From: Thermoproteota archaeon
GTDB lineage: Archaea > Thermoproteota > Methanomethylicia > Methanomethylicales > Methanomethylicaceae
Length of the DNA stretch: 64,000 nucleotides
Assembly: GCA_030055575.1 (NCBI GenBank)
Contig: JASFYL010000002.1
Coordinates: forward strand, 1,780-65,779
Reading direction: 5' to 3'
The notes under the pieces were generated by a model. That model saw only the letters and a program-made list of their open reading frames with translations. It had not been told where the DNA came from and did not search any database. Position numbers and translations under genes: made by a program. This document shows, one piece after another, positions 55,313 to 63,470 of the stretch. Position 1 is the first letter of the stretch; each line of letters starts with the position of its first letter.

Positions 55313-55467
55313 TATCATTTTTTTAAATAATATCCAATTATTCGGAAGTTTATTCCGAGCATCACATAGCTGTCCTTCAATACAGGCGTATTTTCTGATA
55401 AAATACTTTAAAAAATTAAGAATAGTGCTTAATAACTCTACTTGTTAAATATAGGGTGGGGAAAAAT

Positions 55468-56856
55468 ATGGGAGTTAGAAGATATACCAAAATGGCATAC
55501 AAGGATCCCGACGAGATGGTCTTCGGCCATGCCAAGTTCCCAGTGCTAGAGCACTGGAACGTGCAGTTCGGTGCTGGATACGTAGTCCCAGAGGTAAAGG
55601 TTGCCCCTGAACCGGGGACGGAGCGGAGCAAGGAAACACTAGTGAAGGAAATGGCATCCATCGCTGAGCAAGCAGCAGCAAGGGCAGTGGACATAGGTCT
55701 TCCGGCCTTCATGGTTGAGCAGGAGCACGTCTTCCAGCAGACATATCATGCTGACTGGGGATATGCGTGCACCCTCGCCCAGGCTGAGGTCTTGAAGAAA
55801 TACTACGACGAGTATGGCGTATGTGCAGCTCTGAGGCAGACCGTAGGAGACCTCAGAATTGAGGAGAAGGGCGGTCTCAGAGGCTCTGAGTACGACAATG
55901 CGATCGCACAGTGTGTCGAGGAGTGCTGCAAGGCCGGTGCTTCGGACATCTGTGCCGAGACCATGGGTGGAAAGTCGGTCCTTGACTATGGTGTAATGAG
56001 AGGAGATATCAGGGCAATCCTGTTCGGGATTGGATACCTAGGTAGCATAGACATGGAGTACTTCTGGAAGAGGACAGTCGCCCAGTGCGCCAAGTACGAC
56101 ACAAGACCCGCAGGCGACACCAACTGCTCAGGAGCGAACACATGCATGTACGTTGCCGGTGGGCTGCTGGGCAAGGATATGTCGCACACTGGTGCAGCGC
56201 TCGCGAGGGCAATATCAGCTGCGAGGAGCCTTGTGGCAGTAGAGTGTGGAGCGACAGGTCCTCTGAAGGACTGTGGCTACGAGAACACCATAATTAAGGC
56301 AATCACGGGTGTCCCGATCTGCCAGGAAGGCAAGAACGCAGTCTGTGCGCATGCAGATGTCATGGGCAACCTGACCTGCCAGGTGGTTGACTGCTGGAGC
56401 AACGAGTCAGTCTTCCACAGGGAGGAGATGGGTGGACCCACACCAGCAGTATGGCTGCAGGCGACAGGCTACGAGGCAGCGCTGATGAACACAGCCATCC
56501 AGACAGGAAACGCCAAGACCCTTAGAGACCTGTACACCTTCACGGATATGTTCAGGGACCCGCAAGGCACGCTGCTTGCGTATCCGAATGCATACAGGGT
56601 TGGTAAGGCAATCGTCGAGTATGGGAAGGACATATACCTGAGGGCAAGGGCAGCTGCACTCGAGGCTTCCAAGATAATGATGGAGGCATATGAGGCCAAG
56701 CTGCTGCAGATGACGAGGTTTGAGCTAGACACACTCAGGAAGTACACGAGCATACTCGAGAGTCTGCCGATGGAAGCAGAGATCTTCGTTGACCAGTGCA
56801 TGAGGGAATACCCGAGGAAGATACCGACATTTGACCCGAAGAGCTATGGATTGTGA
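55468..56856 (+). CDS. mtaB: Methanol:corrinoid protein Co-methyltransferase
   Basis: Appears collinear, from memory, with Methanosarcina MtaB (VRRYTKMAY..DEMVFG.., CGYENTIIKAITG, CAHADVMGNL, WSNESV). ATG 55468 is preceded by GGTGGGG. Confidence 0.95.
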   Translation: MGVRRYTKMAYKDPDEMVFGHAKFPVLEHWNVQFGAGYVVPEVKVAPEPGTERSKETLVKEMASIAEQAAARAVDIGLPAFMVEQEHVFQQTYHADWGYACTLAQAEVLKKYYDEYGVCAALRQTVGDLRIEEKGGLRGSEYDNAIAQCVEECCKAGASDICAETMGGKSVLDYGVMRGDIRAILFGIGYLGSIDMEYFWKRTVAQCAKYDTRPAGDTNCSGANTCMYVAGGLLGKDMSHTGAALARAISAARSLVAVECGATGPLKDCGYENTIIKAITGVPICQEGKNAVCAHADVMGNLTCQVVDCWSNESVFHREEMGGPTPAVWLQATGYEAALMNTAIQTGNAKTLRDLYTFTDMFRDPQGTLLAYPNAYRVGKAIVEYGKDIYLRARAAALEASKIMMEAYEAKLLQMTRFELDTLRKYTSILESLPMEAEIFVDQCMREYPRKIPTFDPKSYGL

Positions 56857-56867
56857 GGTGTGACAAA

Positions 56868-57698
56868 ATGGCATTGTTAGATTGGGCAAAGAAAGCAGAC
56901 TTTGACATGATCTTCAAGAGGTACAACGTCATCATCGAAGGTCCTGCGATCAAGCCAGAGGACGACCCGGATGTAAAGAAGGTCCTACCGACCGCCGAGC
57001 CGTTCAAGTCACTGGCGATGGCAGTGATCTTTGGTGACTCGGAAAAGGCAGTGCAGGCTGCGAAATCAGCTCTCGACAGGGGTACTGCTCCGCTAGACGT
57101 GATCGAGAAGGGTCTCGCAAAGGGCATGGATGCGGTCAGCGCGCTCTACGCGAAGGGTGCATACTTCCTGCCTGACATCATGCTCTCCGCCGACGCCATG
57201 ACTGCGGCAATGCAGGTTGCAGAGCAGAAGCTTGGCAGGGCGAGGGAGAAGAAGGGCACAGTCGTCTCGTTCGTCGCCGAGGGTGACCCGCACGACATCG
57301 GCAAGAACCTTGTCGTGATGTTCCTCAAGGCGAACGGCTTCGAGGCGATAGACCTGGGCAGGGATGTCCCGAACAGCCAAGTGGTCGACGCGGTAAAGAA
57401 GTACAAGCCAGTAATGCTGACTGGTACTGCGCTGATGACCACGACGATGACCGCGTTCCCCAAGGTCGCAGAGATGCTGAAGGAGCAGGGTCTCTCAGTC
57501 CCAGTATTCGGATGCGGTGGTGGTGCAGTCAAGAGGGACTTCGTTGAGTCCTATGATATGGGAGTCTACGGAGTCAAGGCATTCCACGCTCCGAAACTCG
57601 CAGAAGCTGCGCTTGCCGGCAAGAGCTTCAAGGATATCCGCAAGGAATATCCGAAGATCGTCGGGGAATTCGTTGCAGAGTATGCAGACAGGATGTAA
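56868..57698 (+). CDS. mtaC: Methanol-specific corrinoid protein
   Basis: B12-binding DxHxxG motif (GDPHDIGKN) and an N-terminal helical cap domain. ATG 56868 is preceded by GAGGTG. Immediately downstream of mtaB. Confidence 0.9.
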   Translation: MALLDWAKKADFDMIFKRYNVIIEGPAIKPEDDPDVKKVLPTAEPFKSLAMAVIFGDSEKAVQAAKSALDRGTAPLDVIEKGLAKGMDAVSALYAKGAYFLPDIMLSADAMTAAMQVAEQKLGRAREKKGTVVSFVAEGDPHDIGKNLVVMFLKANGFEAIDLGRDVPNSQVVDAVKKYKPVMLTGTALMTTTMTAFPKVAEMLKEQGLSVPVFGCGGGAVKRDFVESYDMGVYGVKAFHAPKLAEAALAGKSFKDIRKEYPKIVGEFVAEYADRM

Positions 57699-57721
57699 AC
57701 AACATCCCATTTTTTATTTTT
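57691..57721 (+). terminator. Hairpin plus oligo-T tract downstream of mtaC
   Basis: GGATGT-AAACA-ACATCC hairpin spanning the stop codon, followed by TTTTTTATTTTT. Confidence 0.5.
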
Positions 57722-57847
57722 ATCTTATAGTTCCCTATCTGCCAATTGTTTGTTTTTTGTAAAAATAAGTCTATTGCAAGCACGATTTTGTTTTACATTC
57801 TGTAATCATTTAGGTATGTTACAGGGGAAAAAGTATGAAAAGAAGAT

Positions 57848-59488
57848 CTAAATAGCTTTACCCTTAAGTAGCTCGGAGAATTTGAATGCCTGGTTGGGGC
57901 AGACTTGCTGGCACCTCAGGCATGCCATTCCGTTGCAGAGCTCGGACTTTATAACTATCCTGAATTTGTCGCCTACAGGCTCCACAGTTATCGCTTTCTC
58001 CGGGCACTCCGCCATGCAGTTCCCGCACCCCGTGCACTCATCGAAATCGCCAACCAGAGTCACACCTATTTCCCTTAGAACTTTCAGACCCTTCTTGCCC
58101 AACTCAGGGATGTCCCTCATGAAGATCCTCTTTATCTCGACGCTGGAGGATCTTTTTGGCAACGGCTCGAACCCGTATCTCCGCAAGTACTCGTTGTATA
58201 TCGTGATCGGCATCCCTTCTTCCCAGTATGAGAGCTCGAGCGTATACACCTTTTCGAATACCTTTGAGGTGGCCAGCATTATGTGCTTCCCCCTGATGCT
58301 GTCAGCCATCGACTGCAGCTTGTCAAGCATCTCAGGATTCAAGACGATATCCTTTGCCATACCCAGCGAAGTGTTGCCGATCTGCATCACCCTCCTAGAG
58401 CAGGCAGGTATCTGTCCGACATCCATCGACTTGTTCGCGTCTACGTAGAAGCCTGAGGCTCCAGCCATGTAGGAGGTGTCAATGTCCATCATGCTTATAC
58501 CAGCCTCCTCGCAAAGCGATATGTGCCCCGCGCGGAAAGCCCCGATTGCCTTGCCTGCCTCAACGAGATCCCTCCTGGTGAAGTAGATTCCGTCCTGCAG
58601 GTAAAGCTTCCTGTCTTGCGTAGCTATATTCGGCAGCTTGATCAGACCCGTGTTCATCCCGACGGCAAGGACTGCGATCACGCCGGTGCCGGTGATTCCG
58701 AGCGCCTTACCGCTCATAGGACCATTATCGACCACCTCGCCCGAGTGTGGAAGTATCAGATCGCCCTTGTCAGCGAGCAGCTGTTCGTTTAGGACGGTGG
58801 TCCTCCAGCCGTTGGACTCTTGGTTCACATCGCAGATAGCTCCTGGCGAAGCCAGCATCCCCTTCTCGATCCTCTGACCCTCTATCGCAGGGCCCGCGGC
58901 AGCTGAGCAGGTATAGACCTCGCCGTCGATCACCAAAGCGATCTCCGCATTCGTTCCAAAGTCCGTCACGAGGGAGATGCCCCGCTTCTCGAGTACCCCT
59001 GATTTGACAAGCATCGCAAGAGCATCGGCTCCGATCTCGTGCTTCACGCCAGGCGGCACGTATACGTCCGCCTCCGGATTGACTTCAAGACCCACGGAAC
59101 CGGCCTTGATCACGCATGCGTTCCTCTCCGGCGGGGTGATGTTGAAGTCATGCATGGCGTGCTCTCCCCAGTATGCAAGATCCCGGACCTCAATATTTTG
59201 GAAGAGTGAAAGTTGCGTTGGGTTGCCGTCGACCGCAACTCTCTCGACCTTGGAGAGGTCTATTTCAAGCAGCCTAAGCAGAGAGTTTATCGTGTCGATT
59301 ATGAGCTTATGGGCGACCTCCTCGCCGACTTCCACCGCGAAGTGGAGATGGTCTATCACGTTTGCCCCGGGGAGGGGGTGTCTCAGGGTGATTGCGGTCC
59401 CCACGACTTCCTTTGTGTCTAGATCCAGCGCCTGAACCCTAATCCCGCTCGTACCAATGTCTATTGCGAGTCCGTACAAGGAATTCAA
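57848..59488 (-). CDS. ramA: Corrinoid protein reductive activase (RamA-like: ASKHA ATPase fold plus C-terminal 2x[4Fe-4S])
   Basis: N-terminus YGLAIDIGTSGIR (actin-like ATPase phosphate-1). C-terminal CTGCGNCMAECP and CLRCQQVCP. TTG start is uncertain by a few codons. Confidence 0.85.
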   Translation of the reverse strand: MNSLYGLAIDIGTSGIRVQALDLDTKEVVGTAITLRHPLPGANVIDHLHFAVEVGEEVAHKLIIDTINSLLRLLEIDLSKVERVAVDGNPTQLSLFQNIEVRDLAYWGEHAMHDFNITPPERNACVIKAGSVGLEVNPEADVYVPPGVKHEIGADALAMLVKSGVLEKRGISLVTDFGTNAEIALVIDGEVYTCSAAAGPAIEGQRIEKGMLASPGAICDVNQESNGWRTTVLNEQLLADKGDLILPHSGEVVDNGPMSGKALGITGTGVIAVLAVGMNTGLIKLPNIATQDRKLYLQDGIYFTRRDLVEAGKAIGAFRAGHISLCEEAGISMMDIDTSYMAGASGFYVDANKSMDVGQIPACSRRVMQIGNTSLGMAKDIVLNPEMLDKLQSMADSIRGKHIMLATSKVFEKVYTLELSYWEEGMPITIYNEYLRRYGFEPLPKRSSSVEIKRIFMRDIPELGKKGLKVLREIGVTLVGDFDECTGCGNCMAECPEKAITVEPVGDKFRIVIKSELCNGMACLRCQQVCPNQAFKFSELLKGKAI

Positions 59489-59569: not shown

Positions 59570-60166
59570 ATGTCGTCTTTTGAGCTGATCGTCGCGGATC
59601 TGATGGAGAGGATTGTAAACATAAAGGGCATGATAGACGCCACCCTCCTTCCGACGGAGCTGAAGAGGGAGATAATGGCATCAGAGATGTGTGAGGAGTC
59701 TAATTCGCAGGGCTTCTTCCTGAAGTACAATGCGGGTGTGAGGGAGGCGCTGAAGAGGGACAACCTGCTCGCTGTCCTCACAGACGAGAACTACACGTAT
59801 CCGCCGGAGCCTGTGGAGCTGATATACCTAGGGGACACCGTTGGAATGGAGATCAGGGACAAATCACTCCTGGATGTGTACAAGAGCGACAAGAACGCCA
59901 TGCTACTTGGAGACAGCTTCGTCATCTTCAAGGACAGATTGCCCCCGAACAGCATCAGGAAAGCCATGTCCGGAGAGATCAAGGTCTTCATACCCCCAAT
60001 GAGCGTGGGGATAGAGGCGGTCGACGGGGTCCACGGTCTCGTTCTCGCTATGCCCTCAACCGCCACGAATGAACTCCTCAAGGATTGGCTGAGGGAGAGA
60101 GGCTTCGATGTCTCAAACAAGAACCTGGGGGTAGTCCTTATAGGGTTCAACATTCACAAAGTATAA
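59570..60166 (+). CDS. Hypothetical protein (198 aa) in the methyltransferase island
   Basis: ATG start about 35 nt downstream of a TATA-like ATAGATATAAAT. 7 nt upstream of the next gene. No recognisable motif. Confidence 0.55.
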   Translation: MSSFELIVADLMERIVNIKGMIDATLLPTELKREIMASEMCEESNSQGFFLKYNAGVREALKRDNLLAVLTDENYTYPPEPVELIYLGDTVGMEIRDKSLLDVYKSDKNAMLLGDSFVIFKDRLPPNSIRKAMSGEIKVFIPPMSVGIEAVDGVHGLVLAMPSTATNELLKDWLRERGFDVSNKNLGVVLIGFNIHKV

Positions 60167-60173
60167 TTTGTGA

Positions 60174-61187
60174 ATGCATATGGGAATAGTTGAGGATGCT
60201 TTGTGCCTCAAAGAGACAAACAGGATCGCCGTGGCGCCTGTCATAACCGCGAGGAGAGAGCTCTTCGAAGAACTAGCAAGGGCTAACGAGAGCCGACTGA
60301 AACGGTTTGATGGATTTCTGCTGCACCCGGCGGTCTTCGACTCCGGATGGGTCTACCTGCCATCAAAGCCCTCGCTGCAGGAGCCCGTCCAAGTTATGAA
60401 GAATCTAGACGACTACGAGGAGCTGAGCGCGCTGGGTCCAGTGGAGTATGCACTGAAGGTACACAAAGAAAGAGACTTCATACAGGACCTGAAAGACAGG
60501 CTAAAGAGCGCCCCTGGGGTGGTCGCAAACTTCGTTGACGAGACCGCCAGCTGGGGCGTGGCAAACTACTGCGGCGCAATGGGCATCACCCCGATAGGAT
60601 TCATCTCATACTACAGAGGGTTCAACGACACGATGAAGGACATGGCGAGGGATCAGAGAGCCGTATTGAATGCGGCTATGGACCTTGCTGTTGAGTACCC
60701 CAAGTTCCTGGTCGAGTTCGCAAAGTCTTGCAAGGTCCCGAGGGTTTGGGTATCCTTCGCAAACGCGACCCCGGCGATGGTAGGTGACTACTACTTCGAA
60801 AGGATAGTGTGGCCTTCGGCGAAAACCATGATAGAGAGGATAATAAAGGAGGGGGCGATGCCAATAATACAGTTCGACGAGGAGGTAAAGAACCTGAAAT
60901 TCCTCGCCCAGCTCCCCCCCAAGGCGTTCGCGGTGCACGTCTCAGGAGATTCTGACCCCATAAGGGATGCTCAGTCGCTCTCCGGTCACGCGGCGGTGTT
61001 GGGTAACTTTAAGGTGCCAGCCGATCAGCCTGAGCAGGAAAGGATCAGGGCAGTAAAGGAGAAGCTCAGCATCAACAAGGTCAAGAACCTGATCGTGAGC
61101 ACCGAAGGCGGGAGCCCGTTCATAATGACGGAGCATAACCTGGAAAAAGTAGGCGTATTCGAACCGTTCTTCTCGGGCGCTCAGTGA
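60174..61187 (+). CDS. Uroporphyrinogen decarboxylase (URO-D/MtaA) family paralog lacking the zinc-ligand motif
   Basis: By-eye alignment to the in-window MtaA covers the N-terminal ..NRIAVAPV.., the central helices and C-terminal blocks. The MtaA HICG position reads QFDEE, and the APACGIAP position reads STEGGSPF. Confidence 0.6.
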   Translation: MHMGIVEDALCLKETNRIAVAPVITARRELFEELARANESRLKRFDGFLLHPAVFDSGWVYLPSKPSLQEPVQVMKNLDDYEELSALGPVEYALKVHKERDFIQDLKDRLKSAPGVVANFVDETASWGVANYCGAMGITPIGFISYYRGFNDTMKDMARDQRAVLNAAMDLAVEYPKFLVEFAKSCKVPRVWVSFANATPAMVGDYYFERIVWPSAKTMIERIIKEGAMPIIQFDEEVKNLKFLAQLPPKAFAVHVSGDSDPIRDAQSLSGHAAVLGNFKVPADQPEQERIRAVKEKLSINKVKNLIVSTEGGSPFIMTEHNLEKVGVFEPFFSGAQ

Positions 61188-62230
61188 TGGTGGTGGAGCT
61201 CGGCCACAGACATCCCATACCTGCCCGAGATCTCCTTTATCTTTTCCTCGAGGAACTCTCCCATTTTTTTGGAGTCTACATTCCTAACTGCCATGAATAA
61301 GGAAAGCTTTACCTCCTTCGATGCAGAAGGGAGGTCTCCGGAGAGTTCAACCCCAATTGAGGGATCAACTAGGCTAGCCTTGAACCCTCCTCCGTTGGTC
61401 TCAGCGTAAGCCTTGATGTGACCGACGAGCTTCCCTGCATCCTCGACGCACCTCTTGCCGACTTCTCCCAAGATCTCGGCAACTATCGACCTTACTTCGC
61501 TTGGGGGCACGGGGACCTCGGACTTCAGGATCCCTGAGAAGTCGGCTTTTCCTACCTCGGAAGCGACTACAGAATCCTCCCCCTCGCCAACGGGAGTGTC
61601 CAGCTCGATCTTCTCCTGCAGGAGGCACTCGAGGAGGTCCCTGATTCCCTCTCCCGTAACCGACGAGATCCCTATCACCCTGGCCTCTGGGCGCATCTCC
61701 TTAAGCGCTGAGAGTACCAACGGAAGCTCGAACTTCTTGTCGACCTTGTCAACCTTTGTCACGGCAAGGATCTCGGCGTCGCGCGCCTGCTTTGTCAGGA
61801 AGTCCTTGAACTCGGCGAGGAGCAGCTTGAAGCGATATCCATCAACTAGGGCGACCGTAGGGGAGTACTCTAGCCTAGGCACAATGTACGAGGCTTGGAC
61901 GAAGAACCTCTTGACCTGGTTTGGGAGAGCCACCCCCGTCGGCTCTACGAAGATGATGTCCGGATCGAACTCCTCTATGACCCCCTTTATTGTGGAGACG
62001 AGATCGCTGCCCAAGCTGCAGCATATGCATCCGCCAAGGATGCGCTTAGCCTTCAGCCCAGAGCCCTTCACGAATTCGCCATCAACATCAACATCCCCGA
62101 TCTCGTTAACAATTACTGCCGTCTTCTTGCCCGTCCTCTGCGCCTCCATAGCCATCTTTATGATGGAGCTCGTCTTGCCGCTGCCCAAGAAACCAGAGAT
62201 CTGGATCAATCTCGCCATTAGAATCGCCAT
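61181..62230 (-). CDS. CobW/COG0523-family G3E P-loop GTPase (putative metallochaperone) with C-terminal His4
   Basis: GFLGSGKT P-loop, GCICCS (CxCC) metal motif, TKVDK (NKxD-like), C-terminus ELHHHH. Only the C-terminal 349 codons of the 750-aa ORF are accepted. Confidence 0.8.
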   Translation of the reverse strand: MAILMARLIQISGFLGSGKTSSIIKMAMEAQRTGKKTAVIVNEIGDVDVDGEFVKGSGLKAKRILGGCICCSLGSDLVSTIKGVIEEFDPDIIFVEPTGVALPNQVKRFFVQASYIVPRLEYSPTVALVDGYRFKLLLAEFKDFLTKQARDAEILAVTKVDKVDKKFELPLVLSALKEMRPEARVIGISSVTGEGIRDLLECLLQEKIELDTPVGEGEDSVVASEVGKADFSGILKSEVPVPPSEVRSIVAEILGEVGKRCVEDAGKLVGHIKAYAETNGGGFKASLVDPSIGVELSGDLPSASKEVKLSLFMAVRNVDSKKMGEFLEEKIKEISGRYGMSVAELHHHH

Positions 62231-62315
62231 TTTTATAAATGGACCGACAGTATTATAAGTTATTCCAAAAGACCATGGTTTAGCGAACTGGGAACAAATA
62301 GGAAAGGGGAAAATT

Positions 62316-63437
62316 ATGAACGCGAAAGAAAGAGTCTTGAATGCACTTTCAAACGAGCCTGTCGACAAGACGCCGGTAACCTGTTTCACGCAGGTCGGCA
62401 CGGTCGAAGCAATGGAGAAGACTGGAGCCAAGTGGCCTGAGGCACACACAGACCCGAGCAAGATGGTAGCTCTGGGCACCTCGCTGTACAAGCTTGTGGG
62501 TCTTGAGGCGGCGAGGATACCGTTCTGCTTGACCGTCGAGGCGGAGGCAATGGGCTGCAAGGTCGACATGGGAACGGTCAACAGGCAGCCTTCTATCAGG
62601 GCGCCTGCATTCGAGTCCCCCTCTCTGGTTAACATCGACATGGGATTCCTAGACAAGGGGAGGGTGCCAGTCGTCCTTGAGGCGATCCGTCTGCTTAAGA
62701 AGGAGAACATAGACGCCCCACTGATCGTAGGAATCACAGGACCATTTACACTGAGCGGGCACCTAATCGAGACAGAGAGGCTAGTAAAGTTGATGAAAAC
62801 TAAGCCCGAGGAAGTGGAGAGCGTTGTCGACAAGGTGACGGACGCAAGCATAGCATATGTTGAGAGGATAGTTGAGGCAGGGGCAGATGCGATTACGGTT
62901 AACGAGCCCTCTGCTGCGCCGGAGCTGATCGACCCGTTATCATTCAAGTCTACGATCAAGCCGAGATTGCAGTACTTAGCCAACAACATAAAGATCAAGA
63001 AAGTCCTGCACATCTGCGGTGCCTCGCTGCCGATCGTAGGAGACATGGCCGAGTGCGGCTTCGACGGCATCAGTATTGAGGACAAAGTCGACCTCATCAA
63101 GGCGAGAGAAGTCTTGAAGGGCGGCGCTGGACCTAGAGCCGGCGGTGGAATGAGGATGGGTGGTGGATTCGGTGGTGGATTCGGTGGTGGATTCGGTGGT
63201 GGATTCGGTGGTGCAAGACCGGGCGCTACTGGAACTGCGAAGACCGTAAAGATCGTCGGCAATGTCTCCACTGCCAAGACGCTCTTCACCGGAAAGCCCG
63301 AGGAGGTCAAGGCGGAGGCGCTCGCAGCGCTGAAAAACGGGACGGACCTGCTCGCCCCTGCATGCGGCATAGCGCCAGGCAGCCCCCTTGCAAACATCCG
63401 CGCTATGGTGGAAGCAAGGGACGAGTACTGCAAGTAA
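62316..63437 (+). CDS. mtaA: Methylcobamide:coenzyme M methyltransferase (MT2) with Gly/Phe-rich insertion
   Basis: Appears collinear, from memory, with Methanosarcina MtaA. Zn ligands are present (VLHICGAS, APACGIAP). The C-terminus ends EARDEY. ATG is preceded by AAAGGGGA. Confidence 0.9.
   Translation: MNAKERVLNALSNEPVDKTPVTCFTQVGTVEAMEKTGAKWPEAHTDPSKMVALGTSLYKLVGLEAARIPFCLTVEAEAMGCKVDMGTVNRQPSIRAPAFESPSLVNIDMGFLDKGRVPVVLEAIRLLKKENIDAPLIVGITGPFTLSGHLIETERLVKLMKTKPEEVESVVDKVTDASIAYVERIVEAGADAITVNEPSAAPELIDPLSFKSTIKPRLQYLANNIKIKKVLHICGASLPIVGDMAECGFDGISIEDKVDLIKAREVLKGGAGPRAGGGMRMGGGFGGGFGGGFGGGFGGARPGATGTAKTVKIVGNVSTAKTLFTGKPEEVKAEALAALKNGTDLLAPACGIAPGSPLANIRAMVEARDEYCK
63159..63214 (+). 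repeat. Perfect tandem repeat, 12-nt unit GGTGGTGGATTC x4 plus a partial fifth copy, inside mtaA
   Basis: Read directly: units at 63159-63170, 63171-63182, 63183-63194 and 63195-63206, then GGTGGTGC. Encodes GGGFGGGFGGGFGGGFGG. Confidence 0.95.
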
Positions 63438-63470
63438 AAAATTTTTCTTTTCTTTTTTGAGGTTTTTCAT
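63438..63470 (+). terminator. Oligo-T rich terminator region downstream of mtaA
   Basis: AAAAATTTTTCTTTTCTTTTTTGAGGTTTTT directly after the TAA stop. Archaeal terminators are T-tracts. Confidence 0.45.

Follow-up and report, generated by a model that had tools for sequence, protein, structure and literature searches.

A gene of methanol metabolism, mtaA, lies close to the end of the window, the 64,000-nucleotide stretch of contig JASFYL010000002.1 (GenBank assembly GCA_030055575.1) that was analysed here, and it carries a tandem repeat within its coding sequence. The host of the window is Ca. Methanosuratincola. The open reading frame (ORF) of mtaA (62316–63437, plus strand) encodes a methylcobamide:coenzyme M (CoM) methyltransferase (MT2) of 373 amino acids. 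The repeat (63159–63213, plus strand) is a coding minisatellite that stands in frame with this ORF and encodes (GGGF)4GG. Tandem Repeats Finder (TRF) describes it as 4.6 copies of GGTGGTGGATTC with period 12, 100% matches, 0 indels and a score of 110, and the raw sequence agrees; an earlier note on this DNA had likewise reported a perfect 12-nt unit in four copies plus a partial fifth. The note had also placed an in-frame segment at 63117–63245 between two conserved blocks, and this is what the ORF contains: residues 268–310 (KGGAGPRAGGGMRMGGGFGGGFGGGFGGGFGGARPGATGTAKT, plus strand), flanked by ...DKVDLIKAREVL on one side and by VKIVGNVS on the other, make up the entire extra loop relative to canonical MtaA, as delimited by alignments, by loop lengths and by an AlphaFold2 (AF2) model. 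The left part of the loop (63117–63158, plus strand; KGGAGPRAGGGMRM) aligns to KGGGKTIRVGGRTM of Methanobacterium-type MtaA and to KGGAGAKPAGGFRT of other Methanosuratincola, and represents the remnant of an older, clade-wide Gly/Arg/Met loop. The right part (63213–63245, plus strand; ARPGATGTAKT) aligns to PRLGASEPAKA of other Methanosuratincola and to GARPAMGPTK of the relative P0009. The tryptic peptide spanning the loop in the window allele is MGGGFGGGFGGGFGGGFGGAR.

The array is the highest-scoring of the 27 TRF rows with a score of at least 50 in the whole 1.36-Mb assembly, and a run of 43 bases that match without interruption at period 12 cannot be a product of chance in a sequence of this size. 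Next in rank among the tandem repeats of the assembly is a perfect (TGAA)x10.2 (G000:C19:438–478, G000 being the source genome). The sole other genomic copy of GGTGGTGGATTC belongs to the C-terminal Gly/Phe tail GGGFGGGGFGGGGGFGGGG of a DUF2207-like membrane protein (G000:C16:6048–7866, plus strand), which ends in GGGFGGGGFGGGGGFGGGGAGAR. A genome-wide tendency to GGGF insertions was rejected, this tail being the only other tract; a third GGGF "hit" on C51 turned out to be an ORF in the wrong frame. The source genome is a metagenome-assembled genome (MAG) of 97 contigs (88% complete, window on G000:C24), and this fragmentation is what could make one suspect an assembly artefact, which the earlier note had named as a finding that would overturn its proposal. 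The suspicion can hardly be credited: homologous arrays occupy the same codon position in about ten independent assemblies (ENA, JGI and NCBI-derived), two of which are single-contig 1.5-Mb genomes, and a 55-bp array is shorter than one short read.

In methanol-reducing methanogens MtaA hands the methyl group to coenzyme M. The window protein passes the MtaA_Meth equivalog model NF040654 (433.3 bits against a cutoff of 400), with residues 1–373 aligned to model positions 1–337 of 337, and fails the MtbA model NF041608 (231.6 against a cutoff of 600). Pfam URO-D (PF01208) matches residues 3–371 (E = 1.9e-79). The sequence of Methanosarcina mazei MtaA (PDB entry 4AY7) is matched with E = 2.3e-87, and superposition of the AF2 model on that structure by Foldseek gives a target-normalised template-modelling (TM) score of 0.95, a root-mean-square deviation of 1.6 Å and 41% identity. 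The zinc ligands His232 and Cys234 of the HICG sequence (HxCG motif; 63009–63017, plus strand), located at the C-terminal end of strand 228–232, and Cys350 (63363–63365, plus strand) are invariant in 121 homologues, as is Gly235 of the same motif. The earlier identification of the gene as an MtaA that is collinear with the canonical enzyme and keeps HxCG and the C-terminal Cys is confirmed by these data.

The gene is linked to mtaB, mtaC and a corrinoid activase gene (55456–59488 of the window), and the synteny extends to the loci L008–L011, L088 and L089. The mtaB gene (55456–56856, plus strand) and the mtaC gene (56853–57698, plus strand) were assigned from their ORFs and from matches to PF12176 (MtaB) and to PF02607/PF02310, respectively, at the matching positions of loci L008 and L011. 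The gene of the corrinoid reductive activase, ramA (57848–59488, minus strand), scores 782.9 bits with TIGR04270 and contains Pfam RACo domains. Family score, predicted fold, zinc ligands and gene linkage together make the window protein a member of the MtaA family; judged by its sequence, it is an ordinary, functional-looking MT2 of the methanol pathway with predicted catalysis. Methanosuratincola are thermophilic, H2-dependent reducers of methanol and methylamines which are now in culture and are among the first cultured methanogens outside Euryarchaeota (PMC12244365). An exact look-up of the window MtaA in a collection of 15 billion proteins found it absent. The source genome contains three further paralogues of the MtaA/MtbA family, one of which (G000:C31:11531–12196, minus strand) has a TGA within the match and an open frame of just 245 aa; this could reflect a pseudogenised or split gene or an effect of the contig end.

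Whole-genome searches revealed the orthologue of this mtaA in seven of the nine species genomes of the genus, the window's included (the two genomes where it was missed are 73% and 79% complete); further orthologues were found in a sister genus (g10) and in a single genome of each of the genera g3 and g5. Among the genomes with the orthologue, GGGF is confined to Methanosuratincola and g10. The window allele has four copies of GGT GGT GGA TTC. Four copies are present as well in G004 and G005 (unit GGAGGAGGCTTC, GGA GGA GGC TTC) and in G008 (GGAGGAGGATTC, GGA GGA GGA TTC), while three are found in G001 (GGAGGAGGGTTC, GGA GGA GGG TTC) and in G007 (GGTGGAGGGTTC, GGT GGA GGG TTC). Three ENA contigs (L008–L010, P0001) have two copies of the same unit as G001. 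The array of G003 is imperfect and comprises three copies, one variant unit and two identical ones. In g10 the array is degenerate (GGGFGGFGGGGF, GGGF GGF GGGGF) and has no copy count, yet the pure Gly/Phe composition persists despite this degeneration.

The identity of units within an array is 100% in seven of the eight genus alleles. Between most species the units differ at 1–3 synonymous sites, the same unit being shared by G004 and G005 and by G001 and the ENA contigs. Four-fold sites elsewhere in mtaA differ by 31–72% between species, yet they are identical within the arrays; the arrays therefore appear to have been re-homogenised after speciation. At the level of these alignments, head-to-tail units whose similarity is greater within each array than to the units of orthologous arrays represent concerted evolution, and re-homogenised arrays look like the outcome of slippage that contracted and expanded them repeatedly. 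The alleles of G001 and of the ENA contigs are 99.6% identical in DNA and differ at 2 of 161 four-fold sites, but they are exactly one unit apart (3 vs 2). The comparison of these two sequences indicates a recent copy-number change, and such polymorphism between close alleles is that of a slippage minisatellite. On the gene tree at least three copy-number changes are required.

The copy-number variation among related strains and MAGs that the earlier note anticipated is thus real (2, 3 or 4 units). Its proposal of expansion by slippage has to be divided: the array does look like a product of slippage, whereas a young one-off expansion does not fit a GGGF peptide that is kept genus-wide with species-specific synonymous codons. 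From the pattern it would follow that replication slippage or unequal exchange made a frame-preserving array of 12-nt units and homogenises it again and again. About ten alleles were sampled in total. A scan of metagenomes for further alleles gave distant MtaA only (at most 49% identity) and no new GGGF allele, and a homology search with residues 236–335, in which Gly-rich words swamped the candidates, returned just P0001, P0002, P0004 and P0005 and again no new allele.

A perfect short intragenic tandem repeat that differs in copy number between near-identical alleles is also what would be expected of a contingency (phase-variable) locus switching MtaA on and off, a role that the earlier note had considered. 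Such a switch fails because a 12-nt coding unit cannot shift the frame, which is kept with every gain or loss of a unit. All ten alleles seen are intact ORFs, and the array is located inside the coding sequence and not in a promoter. We regard a contingency function as extremely improbable.

When the units are mapped on the trees, at least six unit-wide substitutions are obtained, and all of them are synonymous and fall at third positions of Gly codons. By our own estimate ~28% of random single-base changes of the unit are synonymous, which gives p ~5e-4 for an all-synonymous outcome; with so few events this value is rough. Between the window and G004, identity is ~55% in the non-repeat loop flanks and ~83% over the whole protein, and GGGF is 100% conserved; in this comparison the GGGF peptide appears as the best-conserved part of the loop. 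Purifying selection on the peptide is suggested because the units differ only synonymously and because divergence is faster in the loop flanks than in the core of the enzyme. Of the Gly codons, GGT is used least across the genome (16%), yet it occupies two of the three Gly positions of the window unit, which points to hitch-hiking with the expanding unit and not to codon optimisation.

These observations also bear on the view of the tract as strictly neutral junk, i.e. an unconstrained slippage expansion in a loop that tolerates everything. The free variation of copy number from 2 to 4, the non-optimal codon choice, the absence of the tract from related lineages and its predicted disorder far from the active site would all agree with it. 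It does not explain why every unit variant is synonymous, why the sister genus g10 stays purely Gly/Phe after degeneration of its array, or why flanks and peptide differ so strongly in conservation, and it is in our opinion improbable.

The history of the loop was followed in 121 sequences, the window protein and the 120 homologues closest to it, by the length of the segment that separates EDKV from GN[IV]S, two conserved motifs. A segment of 15–19 aa is present in 35 sequences, which are canonical enzymes of 329–340 aa and include Methanosuratincola paralogues; 83 sequences with 23–37 aa form a loop-bearing clade; and three (window, P0001 and P0002) have 47–56 aa. The segments of 31–37 aa include those of MtaA from Methanobacterium and Methanobrevibacter, in which the motif KGGGKxIRVGGRTMSMGGG is well conserved, and those of other Methanomethylicia, with the motif KGGxRSMxVAGRMxTTQ. 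Relative to the canonical enzymes the net extra length of the window MtaA is 39–40 aa (a 56-aa segment vs 16–17), but relative to its nearest loop-bearing relatives it is only ~22 aa. Some 18 of the 40 extra residues thus belong to an old, clade-wide loop, since Methanobacterium/Methanobrevibacter and other Methanomethylicia carry it as well.

On sequence grounds the comparison shows two layers: an old, ~18-residue Gly/Arg/Met-rich loop that a large MtaA clade has in common (present in ~70% of the closest homologues, n = 121), and a (GGGF)n minisatellite nested in it, which occurs solely in Methanosuratincola and the sister genus. The lineage-specific insertion of the earlier note corresponds to the second layer only. 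The note had further held that wide conservation with divergent codons in characterised enzymes would reduce the tract to an old, ordinary loop; this applies in part, as synonymous codon divergence does extend across the genus, but the enzymes concerned are uncharacterised ones only. The older base loop is itself an undescribed yet widespread feature of the clade. In an AF2 model of Methanobacterium MtaA it is a low-confidence β-hairpin (strands 275–278 and 281–284, predicted local distance difference test (pLDDT) score below 50). The repeat-free relative P0009 contains a GGF motif (...MGGFGARP... vs ...GGFGGARP... in the window), and it is plausible from this alignment that the GGF motif of the older loop was the seed of the GGGF expansion, the array having probably grown out of it. 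In a maximum-likelihood tree calculated with the loop masked, the window gene branches first and the GGGF-less P0003 and P0004 are sister to the remaining GGGF-bearing genes (ultrafast bootstrap 83–96).

Two further features of this clade were observed. The loop-bearing mtaA of Methanosuratincola is 53–57% identical to Methanobacterium MtaA vs 41–51% to the canonical 329–340-aa paralogues of its own family, and P0004, encoded on a 1.68-Mb chromosome of a Thermoproteota archaeon (it has no match in the genomes of the family that were searched), is nested within the loop-bearing clade; these sequences hint at an old horizontal transfer of the mta cluster. Besides, the Methanobrevibacter-like MtaA proteins P0065, P0074, P0088, P0083 and P0054 have Cys/His-rich variants of the helix-to-strand loop (e.g. 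GGCCTIEGHNHGSK and KKGGCCTIDGHEHK), which could form an extra metal-binding site at the back of the barrel.

The AF2 model of the window MtaA has a mean pLDDT of 88.8, and residues 271–306, which join helix 260–268 to strand 312–314, fall below 50. They are predicted to form a disordered surface loop, in line with what the earlier note had supposed. In the model His232 and Cys234 follow strand 228–232, Glu255 follows strand 251–253, Gly315 and Asn316 follow strand 312–314 and Cys350 follows strand 345–348. The location of catalytic residues after the C-terminal ends of strands is the usual (β/α)8 arrangement. With this topology the loop would leave the barrel at its N-terminal face, opposite to the Zn/CoM/corrinoid site. 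In corrinoid methyltransferases the corrinoid protein docks at the catalytic side of a barrel of this type. A direct role of the loop in methyl transfer or in primary MtaC docking is therefore unlikely, and the topology does not favour the flexible tether to MtaC that the earlier note had considered.

It is conceivable that the tract has nevertheless been selected as a functional, flexible arm, a "tuning knob" or tether for docking: its Phe residues would bind one of the partners (MtaC, MtaB or RamA) or would let the enzyme self-associate into a methanol-methyltransferase assembly, and copy number would tune the interaction. The peptide is conserved genus-wide despite codon turnover while the loop flanks diverge faster, and each of the seven Methanosuratincola species with a detected gene has kept the tract, as has the sister genus; moreover, the conserved base-loop motif of ~80 homologues suggests a surface that is used, and mtaA always accompanies mtaBC and ramA. 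Nevertheless, the face of the barrel at which the loop is predicted to emerge is the non-catalytic one, two close relatives (P0003 and P0004) manage without GGGF in the same gene cluster, and canonical MtaA works with a turn of 3–4 residues at the loop site. We consider such a tether unlikely, although it is an alternative to be taken seriously. The composition of the tract is that of FG-repeats and glycine loops, namely (GGGF)4 with aromatic residues spaced by Gly runs and pLDDT below 50 at residues 271–306; this is a likeness of composition only, and no homology is claimed. In the most far-reaching version (GGGF)n would be a selected, length-tunable sticker-and-spacer arm that brings MtaA to MtaBC or RamA, or gathers MtaA molecules into clusters, in thermophilic Methanosuratincola, with slippage acting as a heritable dial on the flux from methanol to methyl-CoM. 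This version we hold to be rather improbable; if true, it would place a low-complexity "tuning knob" inside a core enzyme of archaeal methanogenesis.

The neighbouring genes suggest one more possibility. A gene of ~348 aa for a CobW/COG0523-type GTPase (61181–62230, end approximate, minus strand) is divergent from mtaA and was assigned from its ORF and from its orthologues in L008 and L011, which match PF02492 (cobW). Between ramA and cobW two genes of 198 aa and 337 aa (59570–61187, plus strand) have no match in Pfam or NCBIfam. The pair is syntenic in L008–L010 (198 and 334 aa), and L011 retains the second gene alone (320 aa); the order mtaB-mtaC-ramA-198aa-334aa-cobW-mtaA is kept in related contigs. 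The repeat is located between the two halves of the zinc site (His232/Cys234 and Cys350), a cobW-like gene is divergently adjacent to mtaA in all syntenic loci, and the window unit uses the rare GGT codon. One could imagine from this that the repeat acts as a G-rich RNA or DNA structure or as a ribosome pause between the halves of the zinc site, e.g. for metal loading by the CobW-type GTPase. However, the RNA fold of 63130–63240 is no better than that of shuffled sequences (z = -0.96), by which a structured RNA at the repeat was rejected, and the units of other species use the common codons GGA and GGG. The GG runs are forced by Gly coding and are therefore not independent evidence for a nucleic-acid role. 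We find this explanation very improbable. Minus-strand ORFs over the repeat (62976–63470 and 61181–63433) were treated as artefacts, as they read the Gly codons backwards (PPNPPPN...). The longer one, an "ORF" of 750 aa, is the cobW-type frame that stays open upstream across the antisense strand of mtaA, the repeat being read as PPNPPPNPPPN.

Most of the above is, in our judgement, probably best accounted for by a slippage-generated, composition-constrained and length-polymorphic extension of an older surface loop, non-catalytic and attached to an ordinary MT2. The tract would be a flexible Gly spacer with periodic Phe "stickers" that lengthens the older surface element. It would stay outside methyl transfer and provide at most weak contacts or solubility effects, being tolerated and constrained in composition, and it is not an expression switch.

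Several points weigh against this interpretation. The position of the loop with respect to the MtaC docking surface is derived from TIM-barrel topology and secondary structure, and a flexible chain of 40 residues could, as far as the model goes, reach the other face of the barrel. The synonymous-only test draws on a small number of events whose independence is incomplete. The gene tree allows either one gain with a loss in the P0003/P0004 lineage or two gains (ultrafast bootstrap 83). Finally, strict conservation of GGGF amid diverging flanks could mean that a specific function has been under-rated.

The tract offers a simple deletion test of the importance that low-complexity loops on the "back" face of TIM-barrel methyltransferases may have for stability or for the binding of partners; should it prove inert, it would be an annotation footnote. 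It is a clean natural case of a coding repeat evolving in concert within a core enzyme of an archaeon, and the mtaA array is usable as a ready-made strain marker. In the searchable literature no paper names both Methanosuratincola and MtaA, and that on GGGF glycine-rich repeats concerns eukaryotic peptides or unrelated work only; as far as this literature shows, a GGGF minisatellite in MtaA is unreported. The array is genuine and curious, but it does not amount to a new kind of system.

Among known systems, the structurally characterised methylcobalamin:CoM methyltransferase MtaA of M. mazei (4AY7/4AY8) resembles the window protein in fold, zinc ligands and the logic of the mtaBC neighbourhood, but has a turn of 3–4 residues (...KEVIGTRARLVGNVS) where the window MtaA has 43 residues. 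MtaA of the Methanobacterium/Methanobrevibacter type (~353 aa) and of other Methanomethylicia (346–354 aa) is closer, with the ~18-residue loop (KGGGKxIRVGGRTMSMGGG or KGGxRSMxVAGRM) at the same helix-to-strand junction and with the same mtaBC-ramA linkage as in the window; these enzymes lack the GGGF minisatellite and their loop DNA is non-repetitive.

Coding mini- and microsatellites that evolve in concert by slippage ("evolutionary tuning knobs") have mostly been described in surface proteins of bacteria and in low-complexity regions of eukaryotes. The mtaA array shares with them perfect head-to-tail units, species-specific homogenised variants and copy-number polymorphism between close alleles. 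It differs from them in its location within a cytoplasmic TIM-barrel enzyme of core catabolism, in a small, repeat-poor archaeal genome. The DUF2207-like tail on G000:C16 has one copy of the unit in common with it, but its DNA is imperfect and non-tandem, and it is C-terminal in an unrelated protein. The glycine loops of keratin and loricrin, FG-type repeats and the C-terminal (GGM)n tail of GroEL are terminal domains or tails with known roles in assembly or in a cavity. Like the MtaA tract they combine Gly runs with a single aromatic or hydrophobic residue and are disordered and variable in length, which is an analogy and not homology. In contrast to these terminal elements, the MtaA tract is an internal loop of an enzyme.

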